Origin: a virus
Strand: one strand, 5' to 3'
Length of the DNA stretch: 64,000 bases
IMG/VR virus record: IMGVR_UViG_3300026613_000033
Coordinates: 505 to 64,504 of that record
In this document: in pieces, positions 1,174-27,200 of the stretch
Numbering within the stretch: position 1 is the stretch's first letter
How the letters are laid out: each line of letters starts with the position of its first letter
Made by a program: the position numbers and the translations under genes
The notes under the pieces: generated by a model
What the model saw: the letters and a program-made list of their open reading frames with translations, nothing else
The model's database searches: none
What the model was told of the DNA's origin: nothing

Positions 1174-1181
1174 TATTTATG
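1174..1181 (-). promoter_or_regulatory. T4-type late promoter CATAAATA
   Basis: Overlaps the stop of the upstream ORF, about 33 nt before the 1141 start; the motif recurs before many late genes. Confidence 0.65.
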
Positions 1182-1719
1182 GTATGTAGTATTCGATTAA
1201 AATACTACCACCACCAACGGTTGCATCACCCATAGTTAGTGTCGCAAATGTCTGTTGTTCATCAGAAATTGTAATCTTATTAAAGGATGGATTCACATAC
1301 AAATCGTTTGTGTGTAAGTCAACCACTGTTGTATTAAAGATTGCATCAGCAGCCGATGTATTACCTAACGTCAGTGTCGCGGTAGTACCATCAAAGGCAT
1401 TGTCAATATTAACCATGTATTTAGTTATAATTGCACCAATCGGTAATTCGGAACCAACATTGAATGTACCTGCGTCTAATTGTGTGAAATCAACCGTAAA
1501 CGCGCCTTGGTTTCTTAAATCCGAGTATTGTTTAGTTGAAATCCCCATTGGTGTAACTGGGTCTGATTGTAATACCAATTCACTCTTAATCTCGTTAAGG
1601 AAAGTGTAGTAATATAAATTATCATCGGTTATATTCGTGTATGCGAATTTACCGTTACCCACATTGGCTACACTGAATCCACTCGACACTAGCGATGGAA
1701 AAATTGGCATCCAATTCAT
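1177..1719 (-). CDS. C-terminal part of a frame-split fibre/propeller gene (last propeller blade plus shared C-terminal domain X)
   Basis: No RBS before either ATG; begins with a blade-like segment (FSVANVGNGKFAYTNITDDNLYYYTF) continuing the upstream ORF; C-terminus is homologous to the ends of ORFs 21318 and 26211. Confidence 0.7.
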   Translation of the reverse strand: MNWMPIFPSLVSSGFSVANVGNGKFAYTNITDDNLYYYTFLNEIKSELVLQSDPVTPMGISTKQYSDLRNQGAFTVDFTQLDAGTFNVGSELPIGAIITKYMVNIDNAFDGTTATLTLGNTSAADAIFNTTVVDLHTNDLYVNPSFNKITISDEQQTFATLTMGDATVGGGSILIEYYIP

Positions 1720-4090
1720 CTAAATATGACCACTTATTGGTAATGTAATCAAATTCAAATACAAGCACATCATCAAGGTTTGGAACATCATCATTAACTA
1801 ATGCAACTGTATTCTGTCTAATATAAACCAACTCGTAATCACTCGCAGAAGAACCCAACGTTGTTATAGGTAGACTTATCTCACCACGGAACCATGCTTC
1901 ATTAGAACTGGTTTCAAAGTCTAAACGCAGCATTGATAACTGAGCATTAATACGGTCATACATGGCAACATCTTTGCCATTACCCATACCACATAAAGTC
2001 GTGCCATCTGAGGTGAAGTTATCCAAACTCACTGATTGTTCTGTAATGAAGTCAGTGCCGTCGAATGATGTCATAACAACACCATTAGAACCATCAAACA
2101 CATAAGTGAAATTATTATCGCTAATATATGTAATTGATGTGTAATTCAATACACCAATGATGTCAGTGTTACCCACCTGACTAAATGTTGTACCATTCCA
2201 GTTGTAGCATCTCAAATATGTGTTTGTATTCTTAGTGAATAGAACTATTCGATTGTCGGCTATTGATAATTCACACAACATGGCATCTGTTGAATCAGCA
2301 ATAACCAATGGTGTGCCTACGGCGCTCCACGACCCGTTTGTGAATTCATAAGCCGTTAAAGAACCAACATCCCCATCGATATATGCAATTAAATTTTCAC
2401 CAAGACGACAAATTGAAGGTGAAGTCATGCCACCCGCGATTGCGGTGTTGCCAAAGTTCACCATAGGTTGTAATTCTGTCAAAGGGTCACTTTTGTTATC
2501 GCTGATATATTGTACATCTGTGACTTCACTGCGGTTAGGTGCTAACGCATTGCCCGAACTTGTGTAGGATAAACGAGTAATACTATCCGCATCTTGCGAT
2601 ATTCTATCCATATCATTAACATCGGATGATAAGATAATGGTAGACCTGTTGTTAGAGCCAGTCACACTTGAATACATTTCCAACTTTGCTGTGGAATTAG
2701 CCCCATCGTTTACAGATAGATGGTCAACAGCGGTTGTTGAATCGCCAACTAGTGTGTAATTAGTTTTACCCGCTCGACCTTCTGTATTAGATGCACCGAA
2801 TTCCAAAAAATCAACATTAGCTGAATCTGGTGAATTTTCAACATTAGAACCAATACCAGATGTGAATGTAACACGGTCGCCATTTGCATATTGAGTCATG
2901 TCTAATGATACGTTATCGATAATAACTTGTGGACTACCAATGGAAGATTCTTCAACCATTAGTGACTTAACTGAGTTACCACGGTTGGTGAATGAAAAGG
3001 CATACATAACCTTTGGTTCAATCGTAAATCCGCAACCCGCTATAACTGGTATTTCGCCACCGATTTGAATACTACCGTTATCCATTCTTAGAACGTTACA
3101 ATCGATGTCAGCAACAATATCACCGTTTCCATCTTCTGATAAAACAACTGGTACGTTTGGTTCAATGTCGGTACGTGAAGCGGGTTCATCAGAAGCGTTG
3201 AATGTGAATATGGAACCGTCTGTTACATCACCGATTACGGTGGATGCCACCTGACCTAAACCACGGATGATAAACGTTTTATCGGTTCTATCGACTGGGT
3301 ATGAATTCTCATCAACCGCCACTTCATTAACTGTGTATAGTGTGTCTGCACCTTCTGTGAACAATGGGTCTGGTACATTCACATCAATGTCTAAGTAACC
3401 ACTAAAATCACCTTGACCACCCGTGAAGAAACCGAATGTGTTAATACGAACTAGGCTGTTTAATGCGTCAACATCTGTTAATGTGTGTGTTGCAATTGTG
3501 TCGCCATTTTGTCTTAAAATAATATCAGCACCTTTCATACCAATGTAGAAAACGTCTGAAGCAGAATAGGCAGTAGATGGAATAGGTGTACCAGACGTAT
3601 CACCTACAACTAAGTTACCGATACCATTGGCACCACCGTCTGCGAAAGTGGTTTCATTAAATGCTAAAACTACACCATTAGCGGGGTCTGTTGCATCAGC
3701 GGTATTAATATCAACCTGACTATTACCTAATATCAAATACAAATTAAAAACAGGCGAGCCACCAGTTGCTGTTAAATTACTGGGGTCTATCTTGAAATAG
3801 TAACCTGTGTATTCCGAATATGAATGCGAAATAAACGGCTCAACGTATGTGAAATCTTGCGTTGGCGAAGGGTTAGTCGCAAATGACGCAACTTTACCAT
3901 CGGGTGATATTGTTACATCTGCGCTATTTGTTGCTAATTGTGTGGTGTTAATATTAGCAACTGGAATCCATTCTTCGAGTAATTCACCCGATACGATATT
4001 CCATTTAACACCATCATGTTCATACTCTACACCATTCGGTGCAATCCACGGATTTTCTACATTTGGGTCTGGAAATTGTAAACTAGCCAT
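1655..4090 (-). CDS. Tail fibre / receptor-binding protein with lectin-like region and beta-propeller, N-terminal part of the split gene
   Basis: 811 aa; N-terminus MASLQFP...NGVEYEHDGVKW is typical of T4-like fibre modules; five propeller-like blades near the end; ends in atypical EWIQCSQCG overlapping the next ORF by 65 nt. Confidence 0.75.
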   Translation of the reverse strand: MASLQFPDPNVENPWIAPNGVEYEHDGVKWNIVSGELLEEWIPVANINTTQLATNSADVTISPDGKVASFATNPSPTQDFTYVEPFISHSYSEYTGYYFKIDPSNLTATGGSPVFNLYLILGNSQVDINTADATDPANGVVLAFNETTFADGGANGIGNLVVGDTSGTPIPSTAYSASDVFYIGMKGADIILRQNGDTIATHTLTDVDALNSLVRINTFGFFTGGQGDFSGYLDIDVNVPDPLFTEGADTLYTVNEVAVDENSYPVDRTDKTFIIRGLGQVASTVIGDVTDGSIFTFNASDEPASRTDIEPNVPVVLSEDGNGDIVADIDCNVLRMDNGSIQIGGEIPVIAGCGFTIEPKVMYAFSFTNRGNSVKSLMVEESSIGSPQVIIDNVSLDMTQYANGDRVTFTSGIGSNVENSPDSANVDFLEFGASNTEGRAGKTNYTLVGDSTTAVDHLSVNDGANSTAKLEMYSSVTGSNNRSTIILSSDVNDMDRISQDADSITRLSYTSSGNALAPNRSEVTDVQYISDNKSDPLTELQPMVNFGNTAIAGGMTSPSICRLGENLIAYIDGDVGSLTAYEFTNGSWSAVGTPLVIADSTDAMLCELSIADNRIVLFTKNTNTYLRCYNWNGTTFSQVGNTDIIGVLNYTSITYISDNNFTYVFDGSNGVVMTSFDGTDFITEQSVSLDNFTSDGTTLCGMGNGKDVAMYDRINAQLSMLRLDFETSSNEAWFRGEISLPITTLGSSASDYELVYIRQNTVALVNDDVPNLDDVLVFEFDYITNKWSYLDELDANFSIASVEWIQCSQCG

Positions 4091-4122: not shown

Positions 4123-4644
4123 TCATAATTTAATTCTAAGTTCACCAGTGACTGTCTTATAGACATCCCCCGTCAATAGGCCACCCGAACCCGCCGCAGC
4201 ATCATCTGCGTAAGTTGGAAGTGAAATGACACGTAGTGTATTAACAACACTTGAGCTTCCGCCACCGCCGCTACCTATGCCTGAAACAGGAACCCAAGTT
4301 GGAACATTGGGTGCCTCACCAACATACCAAAGATATAAAGAACCACCGTCCACATCAGAAGAATTCCACCAAAGTGTACCTTCAGTCGGTGAAGTTGGCG
4401 CAGTATCTGAAACGATAACTTCCGTTCCGCCACCGCCGCCAATAGCAACCCATTCGCTGTCCTTGTAAATGATTACATCATCTTCGGAAAAATCTGTACC
4501 AGATACATTACCGTCGTCGGCGGCTATGTACATTATACCTTCAGTGGTATCTGTAGGGTACAAACCCGTAGATGGCAACCATTCCTTTTTAAGGATTATA
4601 TTGGTTGTGTTATCACCATAAAATATATCTGAAATTCTTGTCAT
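4123..4644 (-). CDS. Short fibre-like virion protein
   Basis: 173 aa; first ~70 aa are homologous to the N-terminus of the 1533-aa ORF (8611..13212); has the fibre motif VSDTAPTSPTEGTLWWNS and Gly linkers. Confidence 0.7.
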   Translation of the reverse strand: MTRISDIFYGDNTTNIILKKEWLPSTGLYPTDTTEGIMYIAADDGNVSGTDFSEDDVIIYKDSEWVAIGGGGGTEVIVSDTAPTSPTEGTLWWNSSDVDGGSLYLWYVGEAPNVPTWVPVSGIGSGGGGSSSVVNTLRVISLPTYADDAAAGSGGLLTGDVYKTVTGELRIKL

Positions 4645-4692: not shown

Positions 4693-5535
4693 TTATCCAT
4701 CTATTAAACAGATGTCTGAAATTTCGGTTAATACACCCGATGTGTGAAGCTTTTCTCTACTATGGTCGTTTAAGTCAACTTTCCAAATGGCACACTCAGA
4801 ACCATTGAATGCATTCTGACCTTTCATGAAATCAACAAATGATGACTTCTCACGGATATTAGAAGTAGCAACGTATGCATAACCATCGTGGATGACCAAG
4901 CCTCTCACAAAGCCTTTGAAGTGGTTTGAAATCACTTCTTTATTGGTCATATCCAAGTTGAATCTCAATAAAGAACTTGTGCCAGATTCGATGACATATA
5001 CCTTATCTTCATAAACAACTGGCGAATGTGGTAAAAGCACTTCAGCGTAGGTTTCCTCGTCACTGGTGTGCCATAAACGACCATTATTGAAATCATCTTT
5101 CCAAAAGGAATTGTAAGCCATAGCTGTCACGAAATATCCGCCGTCGTGTGGCTCAAAACCATTCAAATGAATGTAATCCATAGGCTCATCGCCATTTAAG
5201 TGAGAAGGCTTGTACACCACGTTACCATCGATGTCTTTAATAGAACTATCGTTGGTGTCGGCGTAATACATGGTTTCATCAACGCATTTCACTTGATGAC
5301 ACTGCATATGATTGAATTTAATGGCGGGTTTAATATCTATTTTATTCTGAGATAAATTAGAAGCCGATAATTCATAAACGTCGCCGTGTGTTATGATGTG
5401 AACGCCACCTTCTCCATTCGGGCATACACCGCCTACGGAAAATGTAAACGGTAAGTTCACCTTACGTGTTTCACCATTTTCTGTATCAGTGATTAGTAAT
5501 TTCAAATCACTTCTACTTACTGATATTATTTTCAT
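4693..5535 (-). CDS. DUF4915 / TIGR03032-like beta-propeller protein
   Basis: Motifs HLNG...YFVTA, LLPHSP..Y...VYVIESG, GFVRGL...YAYVATS..R match the TIGR03032 pattern as I recall it. Confidence 0.7.
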   Translation of the reverse strand: MKIISVSRSDLKLLITDTENGETRKVNLPFTFSVGGVCPNGEGGVHIITHGDVYELSASNLSQNKIDIKPAIKFNHMQCHQVKCVDETMYYADTNDSSIKDIDGNVVYKPSHLNGDEPMDYIHLNGFEPHDGGYFVTAMAYNSFWKDDFNNGRLWHTSDEETYAEVLLPHSPVVYEDKVYVIESGTSSLLRFNLDMTNKEVISNHFKGFVRGLVIHDGYAYVATSNIREKSSFVDFMKGQNAFNGSECAIWKVDLNDHSREKLHTSGVLTEISDICLIDG

Positions 5536-5571: not shown

Positions 5572-8500
5572 TTACACTGAACCGCTGTCATTCAATGTCC
5601 AACCGTAGGTTGTAATTGTGTCTCGGTCAGTTTGACGAGCCGAACTATACTGTGAAGGGAAAGTCCATGTCACGGAAGTGTCGGGGTAGTCGTTTATATT
5701 GGCCGCTATTGTCTGCAACCATGTGTCATAATTCGCTGTACTGAAGGCAGTACCTGTTAATATACTTGTCGCCACCTGTACGCCATCTATATCCCAACCA
5801 CTTATATCTTGGTTGAATAGCGGTGATGAATTCAAGAAGCTTTGCATGTTGATATTCGTTGAGTTTGGAATATTCAATGTCACCGTCGAATTGAAAATAT
5901 CACATGACTCTAAAGACCTAGATATAGTCACATTACCAGATGTATTAATGGTCAAGGAAACATTAGAATCCAGAGCGTCACAACCCAAAAACATTGATTG
6001 GCCATTGAATGCTCCACTCGTCTTAGTGATGTTTAAATTTATTGGTTGGTTGAAACTTGTACACCCGCTCAAGAAAGTATTCATAGTAAGAGTAGAACTA
6101 CCACTGTAAAAAGTGATGCCATCTATAGATGAATTCAATGATGTACACCCTTGGAACATACCGACACAGTTTGTTGTATTGGAAATATCCATCGTCATCA
6201 CTTGGTTCAATGAAGTACACCCTTGGAACATATTATTGAGTGTAGGGTTATTTGCGAAATCCCAACCCGATAAGTTGCGGTCAAAGGCGAAACATTCACG
6301 GAACATACTAGTCATTGTGTTCACACGAGAAACAACCCAAGAAGTAATATCACGGTTGAATACATCACAATATGCAAACATATTAGAGAATGAAATGTTA
6401 CCAGTGGTTTTGAACGTCCAGTTGTCAACATTACCATTAAATGATTCACAATTGTTGAACATCGAATTAAATGTTGAAGACGAAGAAACATCCCATGCGT
6501 CTAAATCCTGATTGAATGATGTCGCATTGATGAACGTCGAATCAAACGTTGTTGACGATGATGTATCCCAATTACTCAACGGCTGATTGAATACTGTGTT
6601 GTTTGCAAACATTGCAGAAAATGAAGTACAACCAACCGTCGTCCATGTGTTAATGGATGCATCGTTGAACGCATCGGAGCCAGAAAACATAGAACTTATG
6701 ATACAATTTGTTAAATCCCAGTTGGCAACGCTATTATTGAATACAACTGTATTTGCGAAAAAGTTTCTCATATCAATGCCAGTTGGGAATGAGAAATTGG
6801 CCATGTTTTGATTGAAAGCACTTGCGCTATTAAACATGTAACTAAGTGATGCCGCCGCAGGCCATGACATAGGTATAGGGCTGTCGAAGCTGCCCGTACC
6901 TTGGAACATAGACCTAGCCGAAGTGACATTCGTTGTATCAAAGAAACTTACATCTTGGTTGAATGCACTCGCATCCTCAAACATAGACCAGAAACTAGTC
7001 GCATTCGTCGTCGTCCATCCAGTGAGAGGTTGATTAAACGCAACTGTATCGGCGAACATCTCGCGGAATGTGGTAACTTGCGATACATCCCATGCGGATA
7101 TGTTACGGTTGAAATCTCTTGTGTTTCTAAACATACCCTGCATATCAACGGGCGCACTAGTATTAATCGTCCAATTATCAAGGTTGTTATTGAATGAGTC
7201 AGCATTGTTGAACATATTGTTAAAGTTCACGCCAGATGAAACATCCCACGTACTCAAATCCTGATTGAAGATATTACAGTTTTGGAACATACCAGAAAAA
7301 TCAGTAACACTAGAAACGTCTAAGTTGGCCACGGATGAATCCATCGCATTAGCGTTACTGAACATATTGGTGACAGACTTCAGTGCCGTCGAAGACCATG
7401 TTACAGCTTGGTTGAAGCTATTCGCATTAGAAAACATCGAATCGGCGAATTCCAAAGACGTTGGTGTCCACGCACTCACTGGTTGGTTGAATTGTGAACT
7501 GGTGAACATACCAATCGCTGTCACAAGTGATGACACATCCCATGCCGAAACGTCGCCGTTAAATATAGCACTAGAAAACATTGAATTAGCATTGGTTACG
7601 TTACCGAAACCGAAGTTAGCTAGTGAGCCATTGAATGACTGAGCATTAAAGAACATACTGGATGTTATTTGCGCGTCAGTGGCCACCCAACTGCTTAAAT
7701 CTTGGTCGAAGTCAACCGCACTAGCGAAAGTATTACTGAAATCCAATACGCTACTCACATCCCAATTACTTAATGGTTGATTGAAATTAGAAGCACTATT
7801 AAACGTGTAACTCATGTCAGTGACACTTGATGTATCCCAATGGTTCAACGATTGATTGAAATTTGTCGCCCCACTGAACATATAATATAATGATTCGGCA
7901 GTTGATGTCACAGTAAATATAGGGCTATTGAAACCTGAATTACTTTGGAACATACGTGAAAAATCAACGACGTTGGAAACATCCCAAGCACTCAAGTCTC
8001 GGTTAAATCCATCGGCGTTATTAAACATATTAGACATATCGGTCGCTGAACTTGTATCCCAACCTGATATATCTGGATTAAATGCATTGTTCGCACCACT
8101 GGCGAATGATGAGAAATCAACGACGTTAGAAACATCCCAAGCGGATATATCTAACCCTGTACTTAATGTAGATGACGCGCCTGCAAAACAACCCGCCAAA
8201 CTCGCGTTTTCAGCGAAATTCGGTTGAGTCGTTGATGTTATTGTATGTAAGCTCGATGAACTTTGGAATGTTAGAAGACGTATAGGCTGCGATGAAAACT
8301 GAACAATTTCTGTTAATCTTGTGAAGAATTGAAATCGCATACTAGGGAAAACCCCTTTGATTGTCACAGTATACAAACCACTAGAAGCATATGTGTGGCC
8401 AAATCCACTTGTACCGAAACTAGGTCTTATGTATTCAACATTACCATCACCCCAGTCAACGCTAAAGTCATATTGCTCGCTTGTATCTAGGGGGATGGAT

Positions 8501-8592
8501 AAAAATGAAGTGGTCGCTTGTACATTAAAAATTAAATCGGTATGCACTTCTCTCACATCGAAAGAAGCGCCTGCCGCTACTACTAAACTCAT
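5572..8592 (-). CDS. PARCEL/DUF285 (BspA-like) repeat adhesin with N-terminal PKD-like domain
   Basis: About 30 repeats of ~25 aa, consensus WDVSxVTxMxxMFxxAxxFNQxLS; N-terminal VDWGDG...HTY...G.YTVTI; typical cap FSTANYDTWL...WTLND. Confidence 0.85.
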   Translation of the reverse strand: MSLVVAAGASFDVREVHTDLIFNVQATTSFLSIPLDTSEQYDFSVDWGDGNVEYIRPSFGTSGFGHTYASSGLYTVTIKGVFPSMRFQFFTRLTEIVQFSSQPIRLLTFQSSSSLHTITSTTQPNFAENASLAGCFAGASSTLSTGLDISAWDVSNVVDFSSFASGANNAFNPDISGWDTSSATDMSNMFNNADGFNRDLSAWDVSNVVDFSRMFQSNSGFNSPIFTVTSTAESLYYMFSGATNFNQSLNHWDTSSVTDMSYTFNSASNFNQPLSNWDVSSVLDFSNTFASAVDFDQDLSSWVATDAQITSSMFFNAQSFNGSLANFGFGNVTNANSMFSSAIFNGDVSAWDVSSLVTAIGMFTSSQFNQPVSAWTPTSLEFADSMFSNANSFNQAVTWSSTALKSVTNMFSNANAMDSSVANLDVSSVTDFSGMFQNCNIFNQDLSTWDVSSGVNFNNMFNNADSFNNNLDNWTINTSAPVDMQGMFRNTRDFNRNISAWDVSQVTTFREMFADTVAFNQPLTGWTTTNATSFWSMFEDASAFNQDVSFFDTTNVTSARSMFQGTGSFDSPIPMSWPAAASLSYMFNSASAFNQNMANFSFPTGIDMRNFFANTVVFNNSVANWDLTNCIISSMFSGSDAFNDASINTWTTVGCTSFSAMFANNTVFNQPLSNWDTSSSTTFDSTFINATSFNQDLDAWDVSSSSTFNSMFNNCESFNGNVDNWTFKTTGNISFSNMFAYCDVFNRDITSWVVSRVNTMTSMFRECFAFDRNLSGWDFANNPTLNNMFQGCTSLNQVMTMDISNTTNCVGMFQGCTSLNSSIDGITFYSGSSTLTMNTFLSGCTSFNQPINLNITKTSGAFNGQSMFLGCDALDSNVSLTINTSGNVTISRSLESCDIFNSTVTLNIPNSTNINMQSFLNSSPLFNQDISGWDIDGVQVATSILTGTAFSTANYDTWLQTIAANINDYPDTSVTWTFPSQYSSARQTDRDTITTYGWTLNDSGSV

Positions 8593-13236: not shown

Positions 13237-14385
13237 TTAAATTTTTATTCTTGTGTATCGGCCTGCCGTTCCTTGCTTACCGAATACTAGTAATTCATTA
13301 TGCTTATTCAATTGAACATGATAATCGTAACCGCTACCCCATGGTAAATCGGCTTCAGCTATTGTCGTATACTCTTGGGTGGGTAATACCAAAGATGAGT
13401 AATCACCTGTTACCGTTTTTACAACCCAAGTGTTATCACTATTGTCTCTATAACAAACACTAACTTGCCCATCCGACGACATAACGTAACTTAAATCGAA
13501 AGCGGTGATACCTGTACCACCACTGTAGTCTGTGTCGCCAAAATTTCGCCACACTGTATTCGATGTGTCCACGCCTTCGGCTTCGATGAAATAAAAGTTT
13601 TCGTCGCCTTCGTAAGCGTATAGGTATTGTCCATCGTTGGTTATTCTGGCACGGACGGTGAAATCAGCCGTGTTGTATTTTCTACCAACTATCGTAAGAT
13701 TATTTATGCCGCTACCTTGGTCATAATCGAAGTCAAATACATATTTATTAGAGGTTACGTTGACCACAAAACGCCTTGGGTTATCTAAAGCGAAATCCCA
13801 ATCTTTTATGCTCACTGAACCAAAAGACCAACTTTCGCCACTATCGACGTATGTTGTACCATTGAAATACCATAAGCTGAAAATCCTTGGTGTGTTCGGT
13901 ACAAGGACAACATTACCGTCGGGTGAAACTAAAGGCCCAACCGAAGGATATGAACCCCCGAAATCAGATAAAGCAATTGTGATGTCAATGTCAAATGTCG
14001 CCCAATCATCAGATGATGCCAGTATACGAGCATTATTATTTGTACCCAGATTACCGAGAGCTTGACCCAAAGCAACAATATTACCTTCTTTGTTCGCTGA
14101 AACAGTTTGACCCCACTGGTTATTGTAACTGAAACGAGTAACACCACTTGTGTTGCCATAGCTTTGAAAATCTGTGTAATAAACATTGTAATTTATTATG
14201 TTTGCACCATTGATAAAATCGCGGTATCCAGAAAACAAAACTTTACTTGTACCATTGGCCGAAACTTGGTTTTCATCAGTCACCCATAACCCATCGGTGG
14301 CCACGAATTCTTGGTATTCGGTGTCAGCCGTCAAATCAACGGTAGTCATTCTAAACGTGCCATCTGGCACTACTATGTTACTCAT
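13237..14385 (-). CDS. Beta-propeller protein, paralog 3
   Basis: 382 aa; repeated xSxDGxx blade motifs (VSANKEG, VSPDGN, ITNDGQ, MSSDGQ); tandem with two relatives. Confidence 0.7.
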   Translation of the reverse strand: MSNIVVPDGTFRMTTVDLTADTEYQEFVATDGLWVTDENQVSANGTSKVLFSGYRDFINGANIINYNVYYTDFQSYGNTSGVTRFSYNNQWGQTVSANKEGNIVALGQALGNLGTNNNARILASSDDWATFDIDITIALSDFGGSYPSVGPLVSPDGNVVLVPNTPRIFSLWYFNGTTYVDSGESWSFGSVSIKDWDFALDNPRRFVVNVTSNKYVFDFDYDQGSGINNLTIVGRKYNTADFTVRARITNDGQYLYAYEGDENFYFIEAEGVDTSNTVWRNFGDTDYSGGTGITAFDLSYVMSSDGQVSVCYRDNSDNTWVVKTVTGDYSSLVLPTQEYTTIAEADLPWGSGYDYHVQLNKHNELLVFGKQGTAGRYTRIKI

Positions 14386-15506
14386 TACCTAATACCTCCC
14401 GTCAATGGCTCATATCCCATTTTAACCACCTTGTGATTAAAGCTTTCTCCCCTATAACAAACAATCATTTCAGTCATGCTAAATGGAACGATGTAATTAA
14501 CAATATCGCCGAAAGCTGTTTCCAAATCCGCCACATTTATCTTCGCATGTTGAATCAATGTTGACATATCATAACCAGTTGTGCTATCATCCAATGTCGG
14601 GTAAACGAAACGAACGTAATCGTCGTCGCCACGGTAAGCAACCATAGGTACATACTTTCCATCACTTTTAGCGAAGTTGTATGAGCCATAGAATGCTGTA
14701 CATGATTCGGATTCCATTGATATGACCACTGGGGAACTAGGTGTACTTACGGCACCCACATTCCAGTACAAATCGTTTGCAAAATAGTCGTTATAAAAAA
14801 CCACATCACCCGTATATGAAACCGCCATCGTTGTATCATTGGTGCTATAAAATGGCACAATGTTGTAATATGAGAAAGAACCCATACTGGTTCCAGTTAT
14901 ATCAGCTCGATATATTCTATAATCCTGTTGAACATATTCATAAACCAATGCAAAAACTCTCGAACCGTCAGCCGAAATTTTAATCTGTTGAATACGTGCG
15001 TATGTAGCCAAGTCTCGACTTGAGCGAAGTGCCAAACCAGTACCATTGAACTCACGTAATTCAATTATGGCTTGGTCAGACTGGTGTCTTGCCGCCACTA
15101 AACTTCCATCTTCGTTAAGGTCGAATGCTCTAATCTGACCAGATGATAAAATAACAGAGCCGCTAGAAGACCAATCGTTATCAACGGATGTGTCGTAATA
15201 GTAAACACGTTGAGTACCATTGATATAAGCCATTATTTTTGTGCCGTCATTGCTTATACGACATGATGTGTTAAAAGTTGCATTACGCAAGAAGCTTTGT
15301 TGGTTTTTGTAAGCCTTGAATCGATAAACAGAACCCAATCCAGTTGAATCGTTTGCAAGAGCAACCGTTTTATTCACTGGTGAGAAATCAATCCCATATG
15401 CATATGGCTCAAAATCAACTGCGTTATCACCCGCGCCACTGTCTGGTAGCACTTTATTAACACCAACCCACTTCAATGAGCCGTCATTTGTATTAACGTC
15501 AGTCAT
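14385..15506 (-). CDS. Beta-propeller protein, paralog 2
   Basis: Likely start MTDVNT at 15506 with GGAGG RBS; blades ISNDGT, LNEDGS, ISADGS; C-terminus H.KI...DL...PFSMTEMIVCY is shared with paralog 1. Confidence 0.75.
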   Translation of the reverse strand: MTDVNTNDGSLKWVGVNKVLPDSGAGDNAVDFEPYAYGIDFSPVNKTVALANDSTGLGSVYRFKAYKNQQSFLRNATFNTSCRISNDGTKIMAYINGTQRVYYYDTSVDNDWSSSGSVILSSGQIRAFDLNEDGSLVAARHQSDQAIIELREFNGTGLALRSSRDLATYARIQQIKISADGSRVFALVYEYVQQDYRIYRADITGTSMGSFSYYNIVPFYSTNDTTMAVSYTGDVVFYNDYFANDLYWNVGAVSTPSSPVVISMESESCTAFYGSYNFAKSDGKYVPMVAYRGDDDYVRFVYPTLDDSTTGYDMSTLIQHAKINVADLETAFGDIVNYIVPFSMTEMIVCYRGESFNHKVVKMGYEPLTGGIR

Positions 15507-15507
15507 C

Positions 15508-16680
15508 TTATAATTCCTCCAATTCAAAGCCGTTCGACAATGGTGTGTAACTGACCTTTCTCAGTACATTAGTGGATAAGGCGAAATCGTAATAGCACAC
15601 AATCACTTCACTGAAGCTATAAGGCTTAACCCAAATTGGATTCAAGGTGCCATAAGTTAAATCGTTCTCATCGATTTTTCCGTGCATAACCATATTGTCG
15701 AAGTCACAGTCAAAGGTGTCTTCTGGCGTTGGCGTTGGGTATATGATGTAATAGAAGCCAGTGCCCGATTTGTATGATATGATTGGTATTGAATTAGTCG
15801 CCCCTTTAGGTAAAAAATAATCGTACCCAAATTGTGAGTCATACACTGAACCCGTGCCACCATCGACCATGATTGAATCCCAACTGGACGTACTTTCAGT
15901 AGTACCAGTCAAAGTGTAACCCAAGGTGTCGCCACCTTGACATATACCAAACATTTGCGAACCGTCGTGCGTTAATCCAAACTCACCTTGCGAATAACCA
16001 TCGAATGATGAAAACACCACCTTATTCGCAATCTGTGAACCTATGGTATTACCTGATAAGCTGTAAGTTTTCAAACGTCTACTTGTACCATTAAGGTGTC
16101 CAACCACCAGTCGCGTACCGTCGCCTGAAACTTCAATACCGCGTATCTGATTAGTACCCGCCACAACCTGCACAGAGTTACCTGCGAGCAATGAACCACC
16201 ACTGTATTCATGTGCTTGAATGTTATTATCAGATGCCGCCCCGACAACCACATTACCGTCAGCACTCATACCATGTGGGCAAAGACTAAATCTTGATGTG
16301 AAACTTAGTAGCTCATGTGTCTCCCAATCATCGGTTGTTCTGCGATAAAAAATAGTGTCATTACTCGGTGATGACCTTGTTGTCACAACGTCATTGGCCA
16401 AGCTCGTGTTGCAGTGGTTAGTTATAGTTGAAGAACCAAAATAAGTCTGTTCATCAAGCATTTCCACTTGGGTATTTCTGTACGTCTTAAATTCGTAAAC
16501 CCAAATGTGACCTGCTATATCTGTAGTGAATGTCACACGGGGCTTGTTCATTGTTATACGTGCATGTTTAGGTACTTCGGCGAATGAACCTGAACCAGTC
16601 TTTGACGACGTTAAATCAACGACTTCTCTACCGACGTACTTAACTGCTATATTACCTAGTGGTGTATTAATGTCTGTCAT
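15508..16680 (-). CDS. Beta-propeller protein, paralog 1
   Basis: 390 aa; blades MSADGN, VSGDGT, LTHDGS; C-terminus HGKIDENDL...PYSFSEVIVCY. Confidence 0.75.
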   Translation of the reverse strand: MTDINTPLGNIAVKYVGREVVDLTSSKTGSGSFAEVPKHARITMNKPRVTFTTDIAGHIWVYEFKTYRNTQVEMLDEQTYFGSSTITNHCNTSLANDVVTTRSSPSNDTIFYRRTTDDWETHELLSFTSRFSLCPHGMSADGNVVVGAASDNNIQAHEYSGGSLLAGNSVQVVAGTNQIRGIEVSGDGTRLVVGHLNGTSRRLKTYSLSGNTIGSQIANKVVFSSFDGYSQGEFGLTHDGSQMFGICQGGDTLGYTLTGTTESTSSWDSIMVDGGTGSVYDSQFGYDYFLPKGATNSIPIISYKSGTGFYYIIYPTPTPEDTFDCDFDNMVMHGKIDENDLTYGTLNPIWVKPYSFSEVIVCYYDFALSTNVLRKVSYTPLSNGFELEEL

Positions 16681-16697
16681 CTATAATTACCCCTTAA

Positions 16698-18290
16698 TTA
16701 ATTCACGATAACGATGTAATACGTTTCACCGGGTGTGAATCTAATACTGGTTCCACTTCCACCTACACCATCACCCTTAGCAACACGAGCGGCATCACCG
16801 AATGGACCACCTGTGTATGTTAGTGTACATGTGTCAGAACCACCACTACCGAAAAATGTCCAAGTTGGGGGGTCATTAGATGGGTCAGATGAAGCGCCTT
16901 CCCAAATTCTAATATCACTCCAATAACCTGTACTACCCGCGCCATTGGTGTCGAATACAAGTGCGTTGTCATATGAAAAAGGAAAACACGTCACAGCAAT
17001 ATCATTGTCGAAAAATAAACCGTCGATGTCGTAAGGCCCTATGTCTCTAGGTGATAAGTTACCAAATTCGCCACGAAGATAACCATTCTCACTGGCATTA
17101 CCCCCTGCAATCATTGTTTGAATAACGATGCCGCCGTCTAAGATAGTCCATGAGTGGTTATCCACTAAATCATCACGGTTAATTAAAGCAAGACCGTCGT
17201 AACGAGATGTACCGAAATCAACTGTCACATTACTCTGCACAGATTGAACACCCCAACCATTAAGAATATTGTTGTAAGTGGCGGTGTTCATATCATGGTC
17301 TTCCATGAAGCCAATCGCTGTCGTCAAACTTGTGACATCCCAGTTATTGACACCAAGGTTACTTGATGTCGTATTGATATTGGCTAACATGTAATCAGCA
17401 TTGGATAAACTCGATGTGTCCAATGAGCTTAATACGGTGTCATAAGAAACCGCATTTCTAAATAACTCAGACATATCTGTGACATTTGATGTCTCCCAAG
17501 AAGAAATATCACGGTCGAATAGTGGTGCATCTTTAAACGCCGCCGCCATATTCGTCAGAGCCGTGGTAGTAGTCCATGTGGAAATATCACGGTTGAATAC
17601 ATCAGCGCCTTCAAACATACTTGACATATCTTGTAAAGCAGTGAGTACCCATGTCTCGATGTCGCCATTGAAGCTATCCGCTTGCTTGAACATAGATGCC
17701 ATAGTGGTGACAGCAGAAACATCCCAACTACTTAAATCGGACGTAAACAATGAAGCACCTTCGAACATACCAGACATATCAGTGATACCAGTGGTATTCC
17801 AATTTGATAAATTTGCAACCAATGAAGAGTTATCTTTGAACATGTTGCGCATTGATGTGGCCGTACCAATCGTCGGCGGGTCAATCGCAGAATATCCAGA
17901 CAAATTAGTAGCCCCTTCGAACATGTTCTCGAAGTTTGACCAAGTGTTGTTGCCCCAATTCTTAATCGCCGTTATTTTCGTCACATCAGTAGAGCCACCG
18001 AATATAAGTTCGGGTGCTGTACCGCTAATGGTGATGTCATACTCACCCGCCGTCGTGTATGTGTGTGACATACCAGAAGTCGCCGATGAATTAATTACAT
18101 CACTATTACCATCACCCCAGTCGATGGTGATGTTGTATGCTTCGCCATTGGTCAATGGCATGAAGAATGTGTCATTAGCAGAACCACCCGCTAAGGTGGT
18201 ATCTACTTTAAAGATAAATGTTAAAACTGGTACAGGCGTTGGATTCTCATTTGATTCTAATATTCCAGACCTAAAAGCCGCTGTTGACAT
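16698..18290 (-). CDS. PARCEL/DUF285 (BspA-like) adhesin with PKD-like N-terminus and an extra C-terminal domain
   Basis: Likely start MSTAAFRSGIL at 18290 (GGAGG RBS); IDWGDG...HTY...GEYDITI; about 8 PARCEL repeats; cap YNNILNGW...WTILDGG. Confidence 0.85.
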   Translation of the reverse strand: MSTAAFRSGILESNENPTPVPVLTFIFKVDTTLAGGSANDTFFMPLTNGEAYNITIDWGDGNSDVINSSATSGMSHTYTTAGEYDITISGTAPELIFGGSTDVTKITAIKNWGNNTWSNFENMFEGATNLSGYSAIDPPTIGTATSMRNMFKDNSSLVANLSNWNTTGITDMSGMFEGASLFTSDLSSWDVSAVTTMASMFKQADSFNGDIETWVLTALQDMSSMFEGADVFNRDISTWTTTTALTNMAAAFKDAPLFDRDISSWETSNVTDMSELFRNAVSYDTVLSSLDTSSLSNADYMLANINTTSSNLGVNNWDVTSLTTAIGFMEDHDMNTATYNNILNGWGVQSVQSNVTVDFGTSRYDGLALINRDDLVDNHSWTILDGGIVIQTMIAGGNASENGYLRGEFGNLSPRDIGPYDIDGLFFDNDIAVTCFPFSYDNALVFDTNGAGSTGYWSDIRIWEGASSDPSNDPPTWTFFGSGGSDTCTLTYTGGPFGDAARVAKGDGVGGSGTSIRFTPGETYYIVIVN

Positions 18291-18294
18291 TATT

Positions 18295-21213
18295 TTATGC
18301 CTCCGTCGCACCGCCCACCGTGAATGTACCATCAAGTCGGGATACGAATGTTGCCATTGCGTGTTGACCGCGTGTTCTTACATGTGAATCGACATTGTTT
18401 ACAGTGGCTGTACCACCCCAAACAATCTTACCATCACCCGATTGTATTACTGTGAAAGAGAAGTTATCTCCTAGTCCAGTATTTATGGTCAATGTTATGG
18501 TTGAATTATTATTGAATTCGATTGTTTTACCATTATCCGCAGCATCTACTGTATAAGTCGTGCCTGTCTCAAGAACAACGTCTGTTGATGCGCTACCGCC
18601 ACCCGTTATAATCCACCAACGTGAACTATTACCTGATAGGTATGCATTACGAACAAACTTGATTGTTTGACCTTTCGGCGCTTCATAAACGGTTGTACCA
18701 ATATCAACACCGTTGACGATGAAGTTACCAGATTGTGACGTGAAAGTTACATCAGCGGGTCTACCCGTAACGATGAATTCAACGTATGGTAATTTGTCAT
18801 CACCTGATTGTGGCGTGTCAGTCGGAAGGTTATAATTAATCGTTCCACTATCGGTCTTAACACGAACATGGTAACGTTTGTCAACTTCAATCGTCGTAGA
18901 ACCCGCTTGGCCTGAATCTAAGTAAGTGAAAAGGTCAACCGCTTGGTCACGCATGTCAACAGTATCGGTGAATGTAGAAACACCAGAAATGTTGGTTTCG
19001 CCTAAGTTAGTGATAGTCGAAGTAAAGTCTTGCGTTGTACCGTTAAATGTGTTATCACCCGTGAAGATGTTATCACCATTTAATGTCCATACACCGTCGA
19101 TAGTCCAATCAGAAGTAATCGTCCTAGCTTGGTCAATCTCTTCACCTTCTTCATCACGGAAGAATAAAGAACCGTCGCCGTCGGTGTAAAGTAATTGACC
19201 TGCATTACCATCGGCATTAGGCATCTTGAAGCCTTGTATCCATAGGTTGCCGCCGTTACCCGCCGTTACCTCGAAGTCACCACCCGCTTGAAGAACAAGT
19301 GTTGAACCTGCGTCATCAACGATATTGAACTCACCGCCGTTATTTGCATTGACGTTCATTACAGTATCAACTTCAACCGATGTCGTCATACCGAACGTCG
19401 CTGTCGTTCCTCTGAAATCAATGCTGTCTAAATCGTCAGTTGCACCTATACGAATATTACGATTAAAACGCGCTACGAAAATACTACCATTACCAATATC
19501 AATTGTGCTTGATGTTGAACAGTTAAGTACCGAACTGAATGAATTAATTTCCAAGTAACCCGTTGAATTATTAGTACCAATCGTCACAGTTGGTGACATT
19601 GTGGTAGTTGTGCCAGTGATGTTCACATTACCAGACATATTCACTGTTGAGTTGAAGTTGTTGGTATTAGTGAATGTGTTCTCATCGGCCAATACAGCAA
19701 CGCCAGTTGGTACACTAGAAGCAACTAAGTCATCAACGTATAATTTTGTCGTCGGGTGCGAATTAGTCGTCGGTGTTCCAATTAATACTTCAACGGCAGT
19801 GAAATTATTCGTACCGCTTGTGTACGTGTTGCTTTGATTAATGAAGGCAACGTCCGTCGGTGATGAATTATCAACATATTCTTTAGTGGCGGGTGCATTA
19901 TTCGCGCTACCACCTGTGATAGACGGAACCGTCACGTCAGAGCCTGTAAGGTCTAATGTGCCAGTGTGAGTATCACTACCAGAAAATGTATTATCGCCTG
20001 TGAAGGTGTTATTGCCTGTGAAGGCGTTATTGCCGGGCTGTGTGGCAACTACTATACCGCTATCGTCAATGATTACATTGTTGATGACCGTTGTTTCGCC
20101 TTTTTCGATAATAGCCCAACCAGTTGAACCACCAACGAATACCAATTCGATAGCCATACCGATTTGGTTCATTTCAATGTCTTCAGTCTCGCCATTGATT
20201 GTTTCACCATTACGCAAAATGGTCACTGGGTTAGTTGCGTATGTTGGCTCTAATGGTGCAATCTGAACAATGTAACCATCGATTGGCGATAGTGGTAAAA
20301 TGACATCAAAAGCGCCACCTGTACTATCGGCTAAAATACGGTCTGCATTACTAAGTTGATAACCCGCGCCTGCGTCAGCCGTGGTAACAACTACCCATTC
20401 ATTTAAAACTGTGTCTTCATTTACTATGCGCCACGCATGTTCTTCGCCGACATGGTTAGCGTCTATGTTTGTTACACGAATGGCACCTTGCGAATATACT
20501 ACGGTGACATTGTGTGAGTGTCCTTCATTCGTACTTGATGCAACAACAATCGATGGTGTTGTTTCGTCAATTAATGCAATCAAGTTATCAACCGTTACCG
20601 CCACTGCGTGTGTATGCGATGGCGTACCACCCGCTGTCAATTCAATAAGTACAGAAGCGCCGTCGGTTGTGATATTGTTTATTAATGCGGCATCGCCATA
20701 ATCAACGACTACCCAACCAACCGTCGGGTCGATGTAGTACATTTCAATGGATTTGCCAACTTGGTCAACGATTAAATCTGTCGCTGAACCCATGATGTTT
20801 TCACCACCCGCTGTAGAAATAGTCAGCGGATTAGTGTCGTAAGTTGGATTCAAAGGTATAAATGCAAAACGCATACCTTGACCAGTCGGTGTAGGTAAAG
20901 TTACCTCAACTGGATTTGTGGTTGTGTCAACAACATATTCCGTTTCAACGGAAGGTGTTTGGTCAGTAGAAATCACCACCCAATCTGGGTCAACTACTCC
21001 CGCCTTTTCCCAAGACGTAGGTGTAGCTCCCTTCTTCTCGTAACGGGTGCTATCAACGATGTCGATATAATACGAACCGAGCGTTGCGTTATTTACACTA
21101 GGGTCAGATGATGAATTAGGTTCACCGCTACCCTTTAACGTAATTTGTCGGTTTGCGAATTCGACGTTATTACTTTCAACATGATTATCAAATAGTAAGT
21201 CTGAAACTGCCAT
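18295..21213 (-). CDS. Tail fibre (972 aa): N-terminal anchor A, two gp9/gp10-like domains, HxH segment, tip domain Y
   Basis: N-terminus nearly identical to ORF 21318..23273; duplicated unit (YVVDTT...VTLP...TNPLTI...G.W) occurs twice; NxFTG repeats; TK.YVD motifs. Confidence 0.8.
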   Translation of the reverse strand: MAVSDLLFDNHVESNNVEFANRQITLKGSGEPNSSSDPSVNNATLGSYYIDIVDSTRYEKKGATPTSWEKAGVVDPDWVVISTDQTPSVETEYVVDTTTNPVEVTLPTPTGQGMRFAFIPLNPTYDTNPLTISTAGGENIMGSATDLIVDQVGKSIEMYYIDPTVGWVVVDYGDAALINNITTDGASVLIELTAGGTPSHTHAVAVTVDNLIALIDETTPSIVVASSTNEGHSHNVTVVYSQGAIRVTNIDANHVGEEHAWRIVNEDTVLNEWVVVTTADAGAGYQLSNADRILADSTGGAFDVILPLSPIDGYIVQIAPLEPTYATNPVTILRNGETINGETEDIEMNQIGMAIELVFVGGSTGWAIIEKGETTVINNVIIDDSGIVVATQPGNNAFTGNNTFTGDNTFSGSDTHTGTLDLTGSDVTVPSITGGSANNAPATKEYVDNSSPTDVAFINQSNTYTSGTNNFTAVEVLIGTPTTNSHPTTKLYVDDLVASSVPTGVAVLADENTFTNTNNFNSTVNMSGNVNITGTTTTMSPTVTIGTNNSTGYLEINSFSSVLNCSTSSTIDIGNGSIFVARFNRNIRIGATDDLDSIDFRGTTATFGMTTSVEVDTVMNVNANNGGEFNIVDDAGSTLVLQAGGDFEVTAGNGGNLWIQGFKMPNADGNAGQLLYTDGDGSLFFRDEEGEEIDQARTITSDWTIDGVWTLNGDNIFTGDNTFNGTTQDFTSTITNLGETNISGVSTFTDTVDMRDQAVDLFTYLDSGQAGSTTIEVDKRYHVRVKTDSGTINYNLPTDTPQSGDDKLPYVEFIVTGRPADVTFTSQSGNFIVNGVDIGTTVYEAPKGQTIKFVRNAYLSGNSSRWWIITGGGSASTDVVLETGTTYTVDAADNGKTIEFNNNSTITLTINTGLGDNFSFTVIQSGDGKIVWGGTATVNNVDSHVRTRGQHAMATFVSRLDGTFTVGGATEA

Positions 21214-21317: not shown

Positions 21318-23273
21318 TTAAACTACTAAATATTCGACAACTACTACGCCGCCGCCTTGAGTAGAACCGTCTGGCACAATGTCAATTTCTAATTGACGGT
21401 CGCCATCGATAGTCCACGCAAGTTCATTAGCGTATGTGCCTACAGTCGTAGGGTCATTCAAAGCTGTTGTTTGAACAGCGTCAGATGAAAGCGTCGTACC
21501 AATTGTTAAAGTTGGTGCGGTGCCGTCAAACGCCGTGGTGATTACGATTTTACTAGAAAGTACAATTGCACCAACTGGTAAAATGTCACCAATGTCAAGC
21601 GTACCATCAGTATGTGTGAACGTTGCAGTAACGCCGTCCATACCTGTAGAAGCAGCTTGTGCCGCGTCAACGTATGCTTTAACAGAGCTTGAAGTAGGAA
21701 CCTTATCTGTAGAACCAGTTACAACGTCTTCTGTTTGAACTTGTAATGCACCATTATCAAAACCTAAGAATGATGAATTACCAACAGAGTCAACGCGGTC
21801 AACTAGTGTCGATGTTGTTGTATCAGTATTGAAGATGTCGTCAGCGAAGAAGAAGAAATCACTCTCGCCTGCGCCATTTCTTTCAATGGTGCCACCAACA
21901 GCCGTCATACGGAATGCCCAAGTGTCAGTCGTGTCATCAACAGTCGCAACTTCGAAACGCCAGATGTCGCCATTGCCGTCCGTGATTTGCATTATGTCGC
22001 CAACAATTGGTTCAGGTGATAGAGCGATAGTAGAACCACCAGACTGAGCCGATACACGAATGATTGAACCCGCTGATTCAGATGAAACACCAGAAGAGTT
22101 ACTATCAGAAGTAACTGTGATGTCTGTCGTAACAACTTCTTCAGATACAGCAACTTGGAAAACCACTTTACCCGCATCAGTATTTGTTACAACACCGTCA
22201 CCACCTTCGAAGTCGATAGTAGAGTCAGCACCGTAAAGGCCAGTAGGACCTGCGTCGGCATTAACGTTTAAAATCGTACCAGTGATTTTATCAGAATTAA
22301 CACTGTCGATTTTGTCGTTTGTTACCGCGTCGTTTACGATTTGGTCAGTGTCAACAGCATTGTCCGCAATCTTATCGTTTGTCACCGCGTCGTTTGCTAA
22401 TTTAGCAGTAGTGATACTACCGTCAGCAACCGCCGAAGCTTCTTCTTTAAGAGTGTACGTTATCGCATCGGTATCAATCGCAGGGTCGTCATCACCTGTG
22501 TATGCATATACACGGCCTGCGCCCAAAGAACCACTTGAAACAGAAACAGTTTTGTTCGTTTTGAATTCACTGTCTTCGTCAGCGTCTAATGCACGAACCC
22601 ATGAACCTGCTTTCGCTAAGTAGATACCGTTTTCTAAGTCAGAACTACCTGATTGGTTGATTAAAAGTACACGGTCGTCGTTAAGTAACGTTTCGCCGTC
22701 GATTGTAAGTAAACCACCAGTTGAAATGTCGATTTCAGCTTCAGAAACAACTTTTACAGATGTCCAGAATGCACCAACACCCGCTGTCTTGAAGTCAACG
22801 TAAGACTTAACAGATTGTTGCGTAGGAACTTGTGTATCGGAATCCGAAACTAAGTCGTCTTCGTCAACAACCCATGAAGAACCTGAGACATCAGTCTGGT
22901 TGTTCATAGTCGCGCCTGCCGCCGCTACATTGATAGAATCAGTAACGTCAGCTAAAGGCTCGATGCCTGATAACTTGGCCACGTCTGCGTCAGTGAAAGC
23001 ATTGGTATCAGCATTACTTTCGTATAGAGATTTAATCTCAGCAGGCGTAAGGTCTGTTGTCATTTCACGCCAGTCAGCATTAGTAGGACCAATCCTTTCA
23101 AAACGAGCATAGTCGTCAAGGTTTAGGTATACCGTGCCTATTGGCGTATTGATTACACCGTCGTCAGTAGATAGATTCGGTAAGCCAGAACCTTTTAAAA
23201 GAATCTGGCGGTTCGCGAATTCTACGTTATTACTTTCAACGTGGTTATTAAATAGAGTATCAGAAACAGACAT
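21318..23273 (-). CDS. Fibre-like virion protein (651 aa): anchor A, shared ADTNAFTD module, DRVL..NQ module, C-terminal domain X
   Basis: Motifs TIDGETLLNDDRVLLINQ...ENGIY...W.RA.DAD and repeated ITTAKLA/VTNDKIA; C-terminus is homologous to ORFs 1177 and 26211. Confidence 0.8.
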   Translation of the reverse strand: MSVSDTLFNNHVESNNVEFANRQILLKGSGLPNLSTDDGVINTPIGTVYLNLDDYARFERIGPTNADWREMTTDLTPAEIKSLYESNADTNAFTDADVAKLSGIEPLADVTDSINVAAAGATMNNQTDVSGSSWVVDEDDLVSDSDTQVPTQQSVKSYVDFKTAGVGAFWTSVKVVSEAEIDISTGGLLTIDGETLLNDDRVLLINQSGSSDLENGIYLAKAGSWVRALDADEDSEFKTNKTVSVSSGSLGAGRVYAYTGDDDPAIDTDAITYTLKEEASAVADGSITTAKLANDAVTNDKIADNAVDTDQIVNDAVTNDKIDSVNSDKITGTILNVNADAGPTGLYGADSTIDFEGGDGVVTNTDAGKVVFQVAVSEEVVTTDITVTSDSNSSGVSSESAGSIIRVSAQSGGSTIALSPEPIVGDIMQITDGNGDIWRFEVATVDDTTDTWAFRMTAVGGTIERNGAGESDFFFFADDIFNTDTTTSTLVDRVDSVGNSSFLGFDNGALQVQTEDVVTGSTDKVPTSSSVKAYVDAAQAASTGMDGVTATFTHTDGTLDIGDILPVGAIVLSSKIVITTAFDGTAPTLTIGTTLSSDAVQTTALNDPTTVGTYANELAWTIDGDRQLEIDIVPDGSTQGGGVVVVEYLVV

Positions 23274-26210: not shown

Positions 26211-27200
26211 TTAAATGAAATATTCAACTAAAATCGTACCTGAACCCTGAGTTACCCCAGTGCCCAAAGAAATTTCAGCCGTAATTTGTCGTTCGGTGAC
26301 ATTAGAACCAGTCTTTAACATCAGCGCATTCTCATAAATACCGCTAACTTCCGCCTCAACAAGGTCTGAAGTCATAATGATTGTGCCGTTTGCCTGTGTA
26401 CCAATCTCAATAGTTGTTTCTGTTGAACCGTCGAATGCGTCATCTATTTGTACCTTCGCACTAAAGATGTAAGCATTTTCTGGTATGGTGCCACCAATTA
26501 AAAATGGCGCACCCGCATCAGCGAATGTAAAATCATAAGAACGTCCTAAAACATTCTCAGTGACCGCACCGCCACCAGTAACAATTTCCCATGCATTATC
26601 TCTACGTCCATATATGTTGCCGTCAGATGGTGCATCTTGGATACCCAACTGAGTCGTGTCCAAGTCAGTGAACTGCGTATTGGCAACAGCCGTTATCGCA
26701 GCGTTGACTTTGTATATAGAGCCTTCATGTGTGATGATGTCATCTAAGCTATACGACGTATTTATTGCATAGCCTTTGATACCACCACCGATTTCGTAAG
26801 TCTCAACATCGCTGAACTGTGTGTTGTTCGCCGCAATGATGCTACTCACTACAGTGTAGATATAACCGCCATTAGCTAGTAAGTCACCGACACCGTAATC
26901 TGTTCCCGCCGCATATGGTTGTACCGCACCACCTACGCCGCCGCCACCGCCAATATCAACGGTAGTCCAATCTGAATCCAAGATACCATCTTCCAGTGTC
27001 CAAACTGTCTGTGTATCTATTTGATAAACCCACATCCCTTCTTCACGACGTGCATCAGTAATAGCAAGTCGCGCAGCCGCATCAGCCACCGCACGGAAAC
27101 CGCCTTTACCATATTCGGTAAAATGCGTTGGGTACTTATCTAAAGTATCCGTAGGCGAAATCGGTGATGTGAATTTAATTGTGTTTTCTATAGCCGCCAT
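26211..27200 (-). CDS. Virion protein: YPTH-type N-domain, two CBM5/12-like repeats, foldon-like motif, C-terminal domain X
   Basis: YPTHFTEYGKGGFR...RREEGMWVY; repeats Y..G..Y..GD.....G.IY.V; DAPSDGNIYGRRDNAW. Confidence 0.7.
   Translation of the reverse strand: MAAIENTIKFTSPISPTDTLDKYPTHFTEYGKGGFRAVADAAARLAITDARREEGMWVYQIDTQTVWTLEDGILDSDWTTVDIGGGGGVGGAVQPYAAGTDYGVGDLLANGGYIYTVVSSIIAANNTQFSDVETYEIGGGIKGYAINTSYSLDDIITHEGSIYKVNAAITAVANTQFTDLDTTQLGIQDAPSDGNIYGRRDNAWEIVTGGGAVTENVLGRSYDFTFADAGAPFLIGGTIPENAYIFSAKVQIDDAFDGSTETTIEIGTQANGTIIMTSDLVEAEVSGIYENALMLKTGSNVTERQITAEISLGTGVTQGSGTILVEYFI

Follow-up and report, generated by a model that had tools for sequence, protein, structure and literature searches.

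An overlapping pair of ORFs at the end of a fibre gene cluster

The stretch of DNA analysed here (64,000 nt, hereafter the window) corresponds to bases 505-64504 of a 71,367-bp IMG/VR viral contig with a CheckV completeness of ~32%. All long ORFs of the window are carried on the minus strand. PHROG matches identified a T4-like tail and baseplate module, including the baseplate hub/lysozyme, wedge subunits, tube cap, tail sheath stabiliser and head-closure (neck) proteins, and this module is followed by a long series of fibre-like genes. The source is an uncultured, environmental T4-like jumbo (giant) phage. The last large gene of the fibre-like run is split into two overlapping ORFs that lie in different reading frames (Table 1), and many further fibre-like genes are present in the window besides this one. 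No tRNA genes were found in the window.

The upstream ORF (811 aa) finishes with a 14-codon out-of-frame tail, encoding the peptide SIASVEWIQCSQCG, and is closed by a TAA codon at 1657-1655, so that its product ends in ...DELDANFSIASVEWIQCSQCG*. The downstream ORF (180 aa) contains ATG codons at 1719 and 1710, with a +1-frame TAG (1722-1720) directly upstream of the former, and was called as a 177-aa gene by the JGI gene caller. At the T5 run (1703-1699) the mRNA reads GCC AAU UUU UCC AUC, with AAU UUU UCC as the 0-frame codons. Joining the two frames at UUU_U gave a 970-aa protein with the junction ...DANF-PSLVSSGFSV... (junction peptide DANFPSLVSSGFSVANVGNGK). This reproduces the fusion proposed in an initial annotation of the locus, in which the coordinates of both ORFs, of their overlap and of the T5 run were all correct. 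The annotation had also drawn attention to two neighbouring genes of almost the same length (968 and 972 aa). Neither neighbour shows any similarity to the fusion, and the near-equal length is therefore a coincidence.

Table 1 Features of the split fibre gene and related domain copies in the window
Feature	Coordinates	Strand	Description	Basis
Upstream piece, 811-aa ORF (P0001)	1655..4090	-	N-terminal half of the fibre and five propeller blades	
Downstream ORF, 180 aa	1177..1719	-	+1 frame; stop TAA at 1179-1177	
Overlap of both open frames	1655..1719	-	Any +1 event here would give the fusion	
T5 run	1699..1703	-	Most likely site of a one-base insertion; only obvious +1 slip site (UUU_U)	
Fused residues 537-557 (LTELQPMVNFGNTAIAGGMTS)	2420..2482	-	Resembles the 'W.QVGN.L.I' outer blade strand	P0015 alignment, repeat consensus
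Propeller blades 1-5	1703..2419	-	0 frame; fused residues 558-796	Repeat HMM, AF2, Foldseek
Sixth (closing) blade, strands A-C (FSVANVGNGKFAYTNITDDNLYYYTF)	1600..1677	-	+1 frame	P0015 alignment, repeat HMM, AF2
Domain X (phrog_4042), C-terminal beta-sandwich head domain	1180..1569	-	+1 frame	
Other domain X copies	21321-21800, 26214-26600	-	C-termini of the 651-aa (21318..23273) and 329-aa (26211..27200) genes	

The two ORFs are pieces of one ancestral fibre gene

We used the C-terminal half of the fused protein (P0002, fused residues 501-970, with the junction at P0002 residue 297) as the query in an exhaustive HMMER search of a 1.8-billion representative library, which returned 518 relatives of a repeat of ~46 aa. 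One uninterrupted homologue (P0015) is colinear with the fusion over fused residues 537-841 (P0002 37-341), running straight across the junction. A repeat HMM built from the homologues located units at fused residues 558, 606, 652, 699, 753 and 805 (58, 106, 152, 199, 253 and 305 in P0002 numbering), five before the break and one after it. Six is also the modal array length among the homologues (99 of 156 arrays). Many of these proteins end in the strand pattern ...IAF.D....LR.YRF, which is supplied here by the segment after the junction, GKFAYTNITDDNLYYYTF; a six-repeat array with this ending is reached in the fused reading only.

Structure prediction was in agreement with the repeat analysis. 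The first AF2 model of the fused C-terminal half was poor (pLDDT 57.5) and was used for secondary structure only. A model restricted to P0002:30-345 reached a pLDDT of 73.4, with blades 1-4 above 85 and blades 5-6 weak at ~50-64, and consisted of four-stranded blades followed by three more strands past the junction. These three strands form the sixth blade, whose LR.YRF-type ending is that of the homologues. The segment preceding blade 1 (fused residues 537-557) would close the propeller as its N-terminal 'velcro' strand, judging from its resemblance to an outer blade strand; this putative strand was not formed in the AF2 model. The top Foldseek matches of the propeller model were all beta-propellers, most of them six-bladed, and included Pizza6, SAKe6, Kelch, NHL and the AAL and RSL lectins, as well as Sec13 and Seh1. 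Five blades in the 811-aa ORF and the next blade in the +1 ORF, as first read from the letters, are thus what the repeat HMM, the six-unit arrays of the homologues and AF2/Foldseek agree on.

The repeat itself has the consensus LRxYxFDGTxWxQVGN...PALAALxxTDVAFID (window 1703-2482 and homologues P0004-P0151) and usually occurs in arrays of six, which frequently form the C-terminal part of phage-like proteins. Fusions of the repeat with DUF2612 (P0004, P0008) or with Laminin_G_3 (P0006) occur among the homologues. Pfam assigned no family to the two pieces or to their fusion, even at E <= 1. The repeats look like an undescribed, widespread, phage-type family of six-bladed propellers, and the 518 hits document this family, for which Pfam has no model, as a by-product of the present analysis.

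Beyond the sixth blade, the +1 frame encodes domain X. In all cases detected, domain X forms the C-terminal end of a longer protein, as seen in P0010, P0011 and P0046 and in the 651-aa and 329-aa genes of the window, and its structural neighbours in the protein Atlas are the ends of phage fibre proteins. The copies in the three fibre genes share ~35% identity with each other, which suggests that one tip domain is reused modularly on different shafts. The initial annotation had stated that this domain also ends two other fibre genes. That is true of the 651-aa and 329-aa genes, but not of the two neighbours of 968 and 972 aa. As a second by-product, the analysis thereby documents that three fibres of the same phage carry a recurrent head domain (phrog_4042) at their C-termini.

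The 180-aa ORF was further examined for start signals. In most genes of the window the start codon is preceded, at a distance of 6-12 nt, by an AGG/GAGG-type site, whereas no SD-like site was found in the sequence upstream of either ATG (1719 or 1710), and the earlier reading of this ORF as lacking a ribosome-binding site was confirmed. The alignment with P0015, the count of six repeats, the propeller model, the C-terminal position of domain X and the missing start signals together establish that the 811-aa and 180-aa ORFs derive from a single ancestral fibre gene encoding 970 aa.

The break lies at or next to the T5 run

The break is bounded by the +1-frame TAG (1720) and the 0-frame TAA (1657), and with codon usage taken into account the switch of frame falls within 1699-1719. 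Codon usage was evaluated against a reference of windows from real genes in which both frames are open. For the 14 overlap codons after the T run, the log-likelihood ratio was +6.4 in favour of the +1 frame. This value lies at the 32nd percentile if the +1 frame is coding; for a coding 0 frame, P = 0.0012, and the density ratio is ~88. The six codons before the T run weakly favoured the 0 frame. Codon usage therefore flips from the 0 to the +1 frame around the T run, which places the frame change at or just before 1699-1703 and supports a break at or next to the T5 run. The 0-frame tail had been noted as out of character for the 811-aa protein, and the codon-usage result is in line with this.

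The same tail bears a superficial likeness to blade 4 (QCSQCGNGK vs LCGMGNGK). A slip immediately ahead of the stop, at the final sense codon (GGG_UAA_C), by which the tail would be retained in the fusion, was ruled out by the codon-usage test. We found no other frame-broken genes in the window. Two +1 ORF overlaps that had the appearance of frameshift pairs (18295/18335 and 15508/15527) proved to be artefacts of TTG-start ORF calling. The real starts of the genes concerned (16698..18335 and 14385..15527, both minus strand) are ATG codons at ~18289 and ~15505, each behind a GGAGG.

The same break is present in a second assembly

A second contig, Ga0311272_100322 (JGI 3300029585; 70,587 bp), contains the same T5 run, and the 811-aa and 177-aa products that it encodes are identical to those of the window. 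A comparison of the two over 30 kb showed 4 SNPs and 0 indels (99.99% identical). The ends and lengths of the two contigs are different, and they are therefore separate assemblies of nearly the same phage. Since the same T5 occurs in both, a random assembly error is unlikely, and the one-base break is likely to be real in the phage DNA.

This contig was the only other copy of the broken gene found, and no intact (T4) relative was recovered. Orthologues of the split gene were absent from GenBank phages, IMG/VR, JGI metagenomes and the 5.8- and 15-billion-protein collections. GenBank phages gave no match in near or protein-level searches, IMG/VR contained no relatives of P0001, and word-based homologue searches with the C-terminal half, the N-terminal half and the 180-aa ORF returned self hits only. 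Likewise, a search for the exact flanks with T3 to T7 between them had no match among viral and metagenome contigs, a set in which the window's own and near-identical records were possibly hidden.

Origin of the break

Four mechanisms had been put forward for the break, namely programmed +1 frameshifting, a homopolymer phase switch, a recent inactivating insertion and a sequencing error. Under the last of these, the true genome would have T4 and a normal 970-aa gene. The break does fall at a homopolymer, and removing one T yields a sensible protein with the expected repeat spacing. Against an error, the two contigs both have T5 and differ by SNPs only, which argues for an accurate consensus. 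A run of five is also short for a systematic homopolymer error, and no further frame break occurs in the window, the two apparent overlaps being ordinary GGAGG and ATG genes. The second, independent contig thus makes a sequencing error very unlikely. That the break of a fibre gene coincides with a homopolymer would equally fit a reversible ON/OFF switch, in which slipped-strand mispairing maintains a population of T4 (ON) and T5 (OFF) genomes with differing host range. The tract is only 5 nt, and known contingency tracts are considerably longer; such a run is also too short for transcriptional slippage, which was set aside. Coding sequence in the window contains 27 T5, 8 T6, 33 A5 and 3 A6 runs, and the T5 and T6 runs break no gene. 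Switching of receptor-binding genes by polyG tracts has been described in Campylobacter phages (Sorensen et al. 2021, Cell Rep 35:109214, cited in PMC10877375), and the present case is similar in that a homopolymer lies in a receptor-binding gene and its length decides whether the full protein is made. Unlike the T5 studied here, which resembles dozens of others in the window and has the same length in both assemblies, the Campylobacter tracts are, by the account in PMC10877375, long and visibly polymorphic. Being too short and too common in the coding sequence of the window, the T5 run is highly improbable as a phase switch. The two ORFs could also be translated as two proteins, the blade of the 180-/177-aa product docking in the open five-blade propeller and the head being provided in trans. 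Both frames are open, two ATG codons are available and the 177-aa gene was called by JGI. Open six-bladed propellers that are completed in trans exist, Sec13 and Seh1 are among the fold matches, and the Atlas contains viral clusters of ~170-200 aa with a similar head fold, which are leads only (scores <0.9). However, besides the missing SD-like sites, the ATG codons lie 53-62 nt upstream of the stop of the 811-aa ORF, a poor geometry for termination-reinitiation. The word-based search found no short stand-alone sequence homologue of the 180-aa ORF, and the sequence homologues of domain X all form the C-terminal part of a longer protein. Codon usage moreover puts the frame change at the T run and not at a gene boundary. 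Separate synthesis of the two pieces is therefore extremely unlikely.

Programmed, that is selected, +1 frameshifting would involve a slip of tRNA-Phe from UUU (1702-1700) to UUU (1701-1699) with the rare UCC in the A site, and would fix the proportions of a short form (811 aa) and a 970-aa form with closing blade and head. The P-site codon in UUU_U re-pairs perfectly in the +1 frame, and UCC is rare in the genes of the window (4% of Ser codons, 0.34% overall, the 9th rarest codon). The downstream ORF is fully intact, and both assemblies have the break as their consensus. In bacteria, UUU_Ynn sites are documented as especially +1-prone, and one is apparently used for YopN-TyeA; a rhizobial ICE gene has UUU as its shift codon, and UCC follows the +1 site CCC in cps of Listeria phage PSA (all PMC5009743). 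Several observations count against this reading. There is no SD-like element 3 nt upstream of UUU_U (the upstream sequence is UUGGAUGCCAAU), and RNA folding near the shift site gave no significant structure (z = -1.20 and -1.45). The shift would occur inside the propeller, between blades 5 and 6, leaving the short form without its closing sixth blade, whereas the known frameshifts in phage structural genes (PSA, A118, T3/T7, lambda G-T) are at the end of a complete functional unit, which they lengthen by an extension (PMC5009743). UUU_UCC is found in frame at 4491 and 5442, in two adjacent intact genes, and UUU_U is not avoided in frame in the genes of the window (53 observed vs 62 expected). 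Finally, a T4 to T5 insertion is by itself enough to generate the motif of UUU_U and rare UCC. As any such insertion makes UUU_U followed by an out-of-frame, probably rare triplet, the motif and the rarity of UCC are not independent evidence for recoding. A genuine +1 site would likewise show UUU_U followed by a rare codon. With no stimulator, a break within a domain and no positive support beyond UUU_U and the rare UCC, the proposal of programmed frameshifting with two isoforms did not gain ground, and we regard it as unlikely. Its specific form, a selected site at which a fixed minority of ribosomes shift without a classical stimulator, yielding a low-copy, full-length, headed fibre beside an abundant headless form, is likewise unlikely.

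Among the four mechanisms, the recent inactivating insertion fits the observations best, and we lean towards a real one-base insertion by which an accessory fibre was inactivated in the manner of lambda PaPa stf; any +1 slippage would be no more than leaky. The ancestral product would have been an accessory receptor-binding fibre comprising an N-terminal fibre part, a six-bladed beta-propeller and a C-terminal head domain, with GCC AAU UUU CCA (A N F P) as the reading at the site. An extra T in the former T4 run, most likely inserted by replication slippage, would have moved the last blade and the head domain to the +1 frame. The main product would now be the 811-aa protein with a five-blade, incomplete propeller and no head, and this headless form is probably non-functional or unstable. 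Since the downstream 174 codons are still intact, the lesion would be recent. Loss of the fibre would be tolerated because the phage has many other fibre genes, comparable to laboratory lambda with its frameshifted stf, and the split fibre is by this analogy presumably dispensable to the phage. UUU_Ynn is +1-prone and the next codon, UCC, is rare, so that a small, unselected full-length fraction is possible; leaky slippage of this kind may yield some full-length protein.

Some findings bear against the insertion. No T4 version was found in any relative, and we thus infer the insertion. The broken allele is moreover the consensus in two samples, with a downstream ORF that has not decayed, and selection for a frameshift-dependent product would leave the same intact downstream ORF.

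Comparison with known systems

In lambda PaPa, a frameshift in stf removes the non-essential side fibres (PMC12617516, citing Hendrix & Duda 1992, Science 258:1145). In the outline given by that source, the likeness to the present gene is close, in that an accessory fibre gene is divided into two ORFs by a one-base frameshift and lambda remains viable through other adsorption proteins. The same outline indicates a difference in history, since for lambda the intact ancestor (Ur-lambda) has been identified and the fibres were lost in the laboratory. In contrast, the gene studied here belongs to an environmental T4-like jumbo phage, its break lies inside a propeller and no intact allele is known.

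The Yersinia YopN-TyeA pair (PMC5009743) shares the UUU_U class of site and the lack of an adjacent stop codon, and low-level +1 frameshifting there joins two adjacent frames in a hybrid protein. YopN and TyeA are, however, complete proteins that are also made separately (PMC5009743), whereas the two ORFs here encode fragments of one domain. The downstream piece here has no start signals of its own, and any +1 shift into it would be putative. A comparable combination of a homopolymer indel with rare ribosomal slippage that partly offsets it is known from the 'savior' indels in the G-run of herpesvirus thymidine kinase (PMC5009743). The leaky full-length product considered here follows the same concept. 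In the herpesvirus system frameshifting has been measured and the reason for its selection is known (PMC5009743); for the fibre gene both are hypothetical.

The Listeria phages PSA, A118 and A500 (Zimmer 2003; Dorscht 2009; via PMC5009743) offer a further parallel as far as PMC5009743 relates them. A phage virion gene with a P-site codon capable of re-pairing is involved in both cases, two products with a common N-terminus would result, and PSA cps also has UCC as the next codon. As reported in the same place, the Listeria shift takes place at CCC, beside a stop codon or a pseudoknot, which is not so here. It occurs towards the 3' end of a gene that is complete, provides an additional domain and is conserved in relatives, none of which was seen for the fibre gene.

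The two leading readings differ in what they would mean. Were a selected +1 shift true, phage receptor-binding proteins would have their first case of programmed +1 frameshifting, and the phage a means to set fibre stoichiometry or to display two tips. Recoding would thereby be extended to receptor-binding proteins, with a minimal, stimulator-free +1 site available for study. If the break is an ordinary lesion, the main value lies in annotation, the two ORFs being recorded as one disrupted 970-aa fibre gene, and phages with broken accessory fibre genes gain an added environmental example.

Further observations on neighbouring genes

The two in-frame UUU_UCC sites elsewhere in the window lie at 4484-4495 (gene 4123..4644, minus strand) and 5437-5442 (gene 4693..5535, minus strand), and the one at 4491 sits in an identical AUUUUUCC with a T5 run. 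Across all minus-strand genes of the window, UUU_C is depleted in frame (15 observed vs 36 expected), for which codon-pair bias, or else avoidance of a particular class of +1-prone site, may be responsible.

The gene at 4693..5535, two genes upstream of the broken fibre gene, encodes a 280-aa protein with a match to DUF4915 (E 1.5e-25) and a weak match to DUF5050, and may be a second, unrelated propeller-like protein. Also within the fibre cluster, the gene at 5572..8592 (minus strand) encodes a protein of 1006 aa that consists nearly entirely of DUF285 repeats (ten matched stretches, E 1.7e-164).
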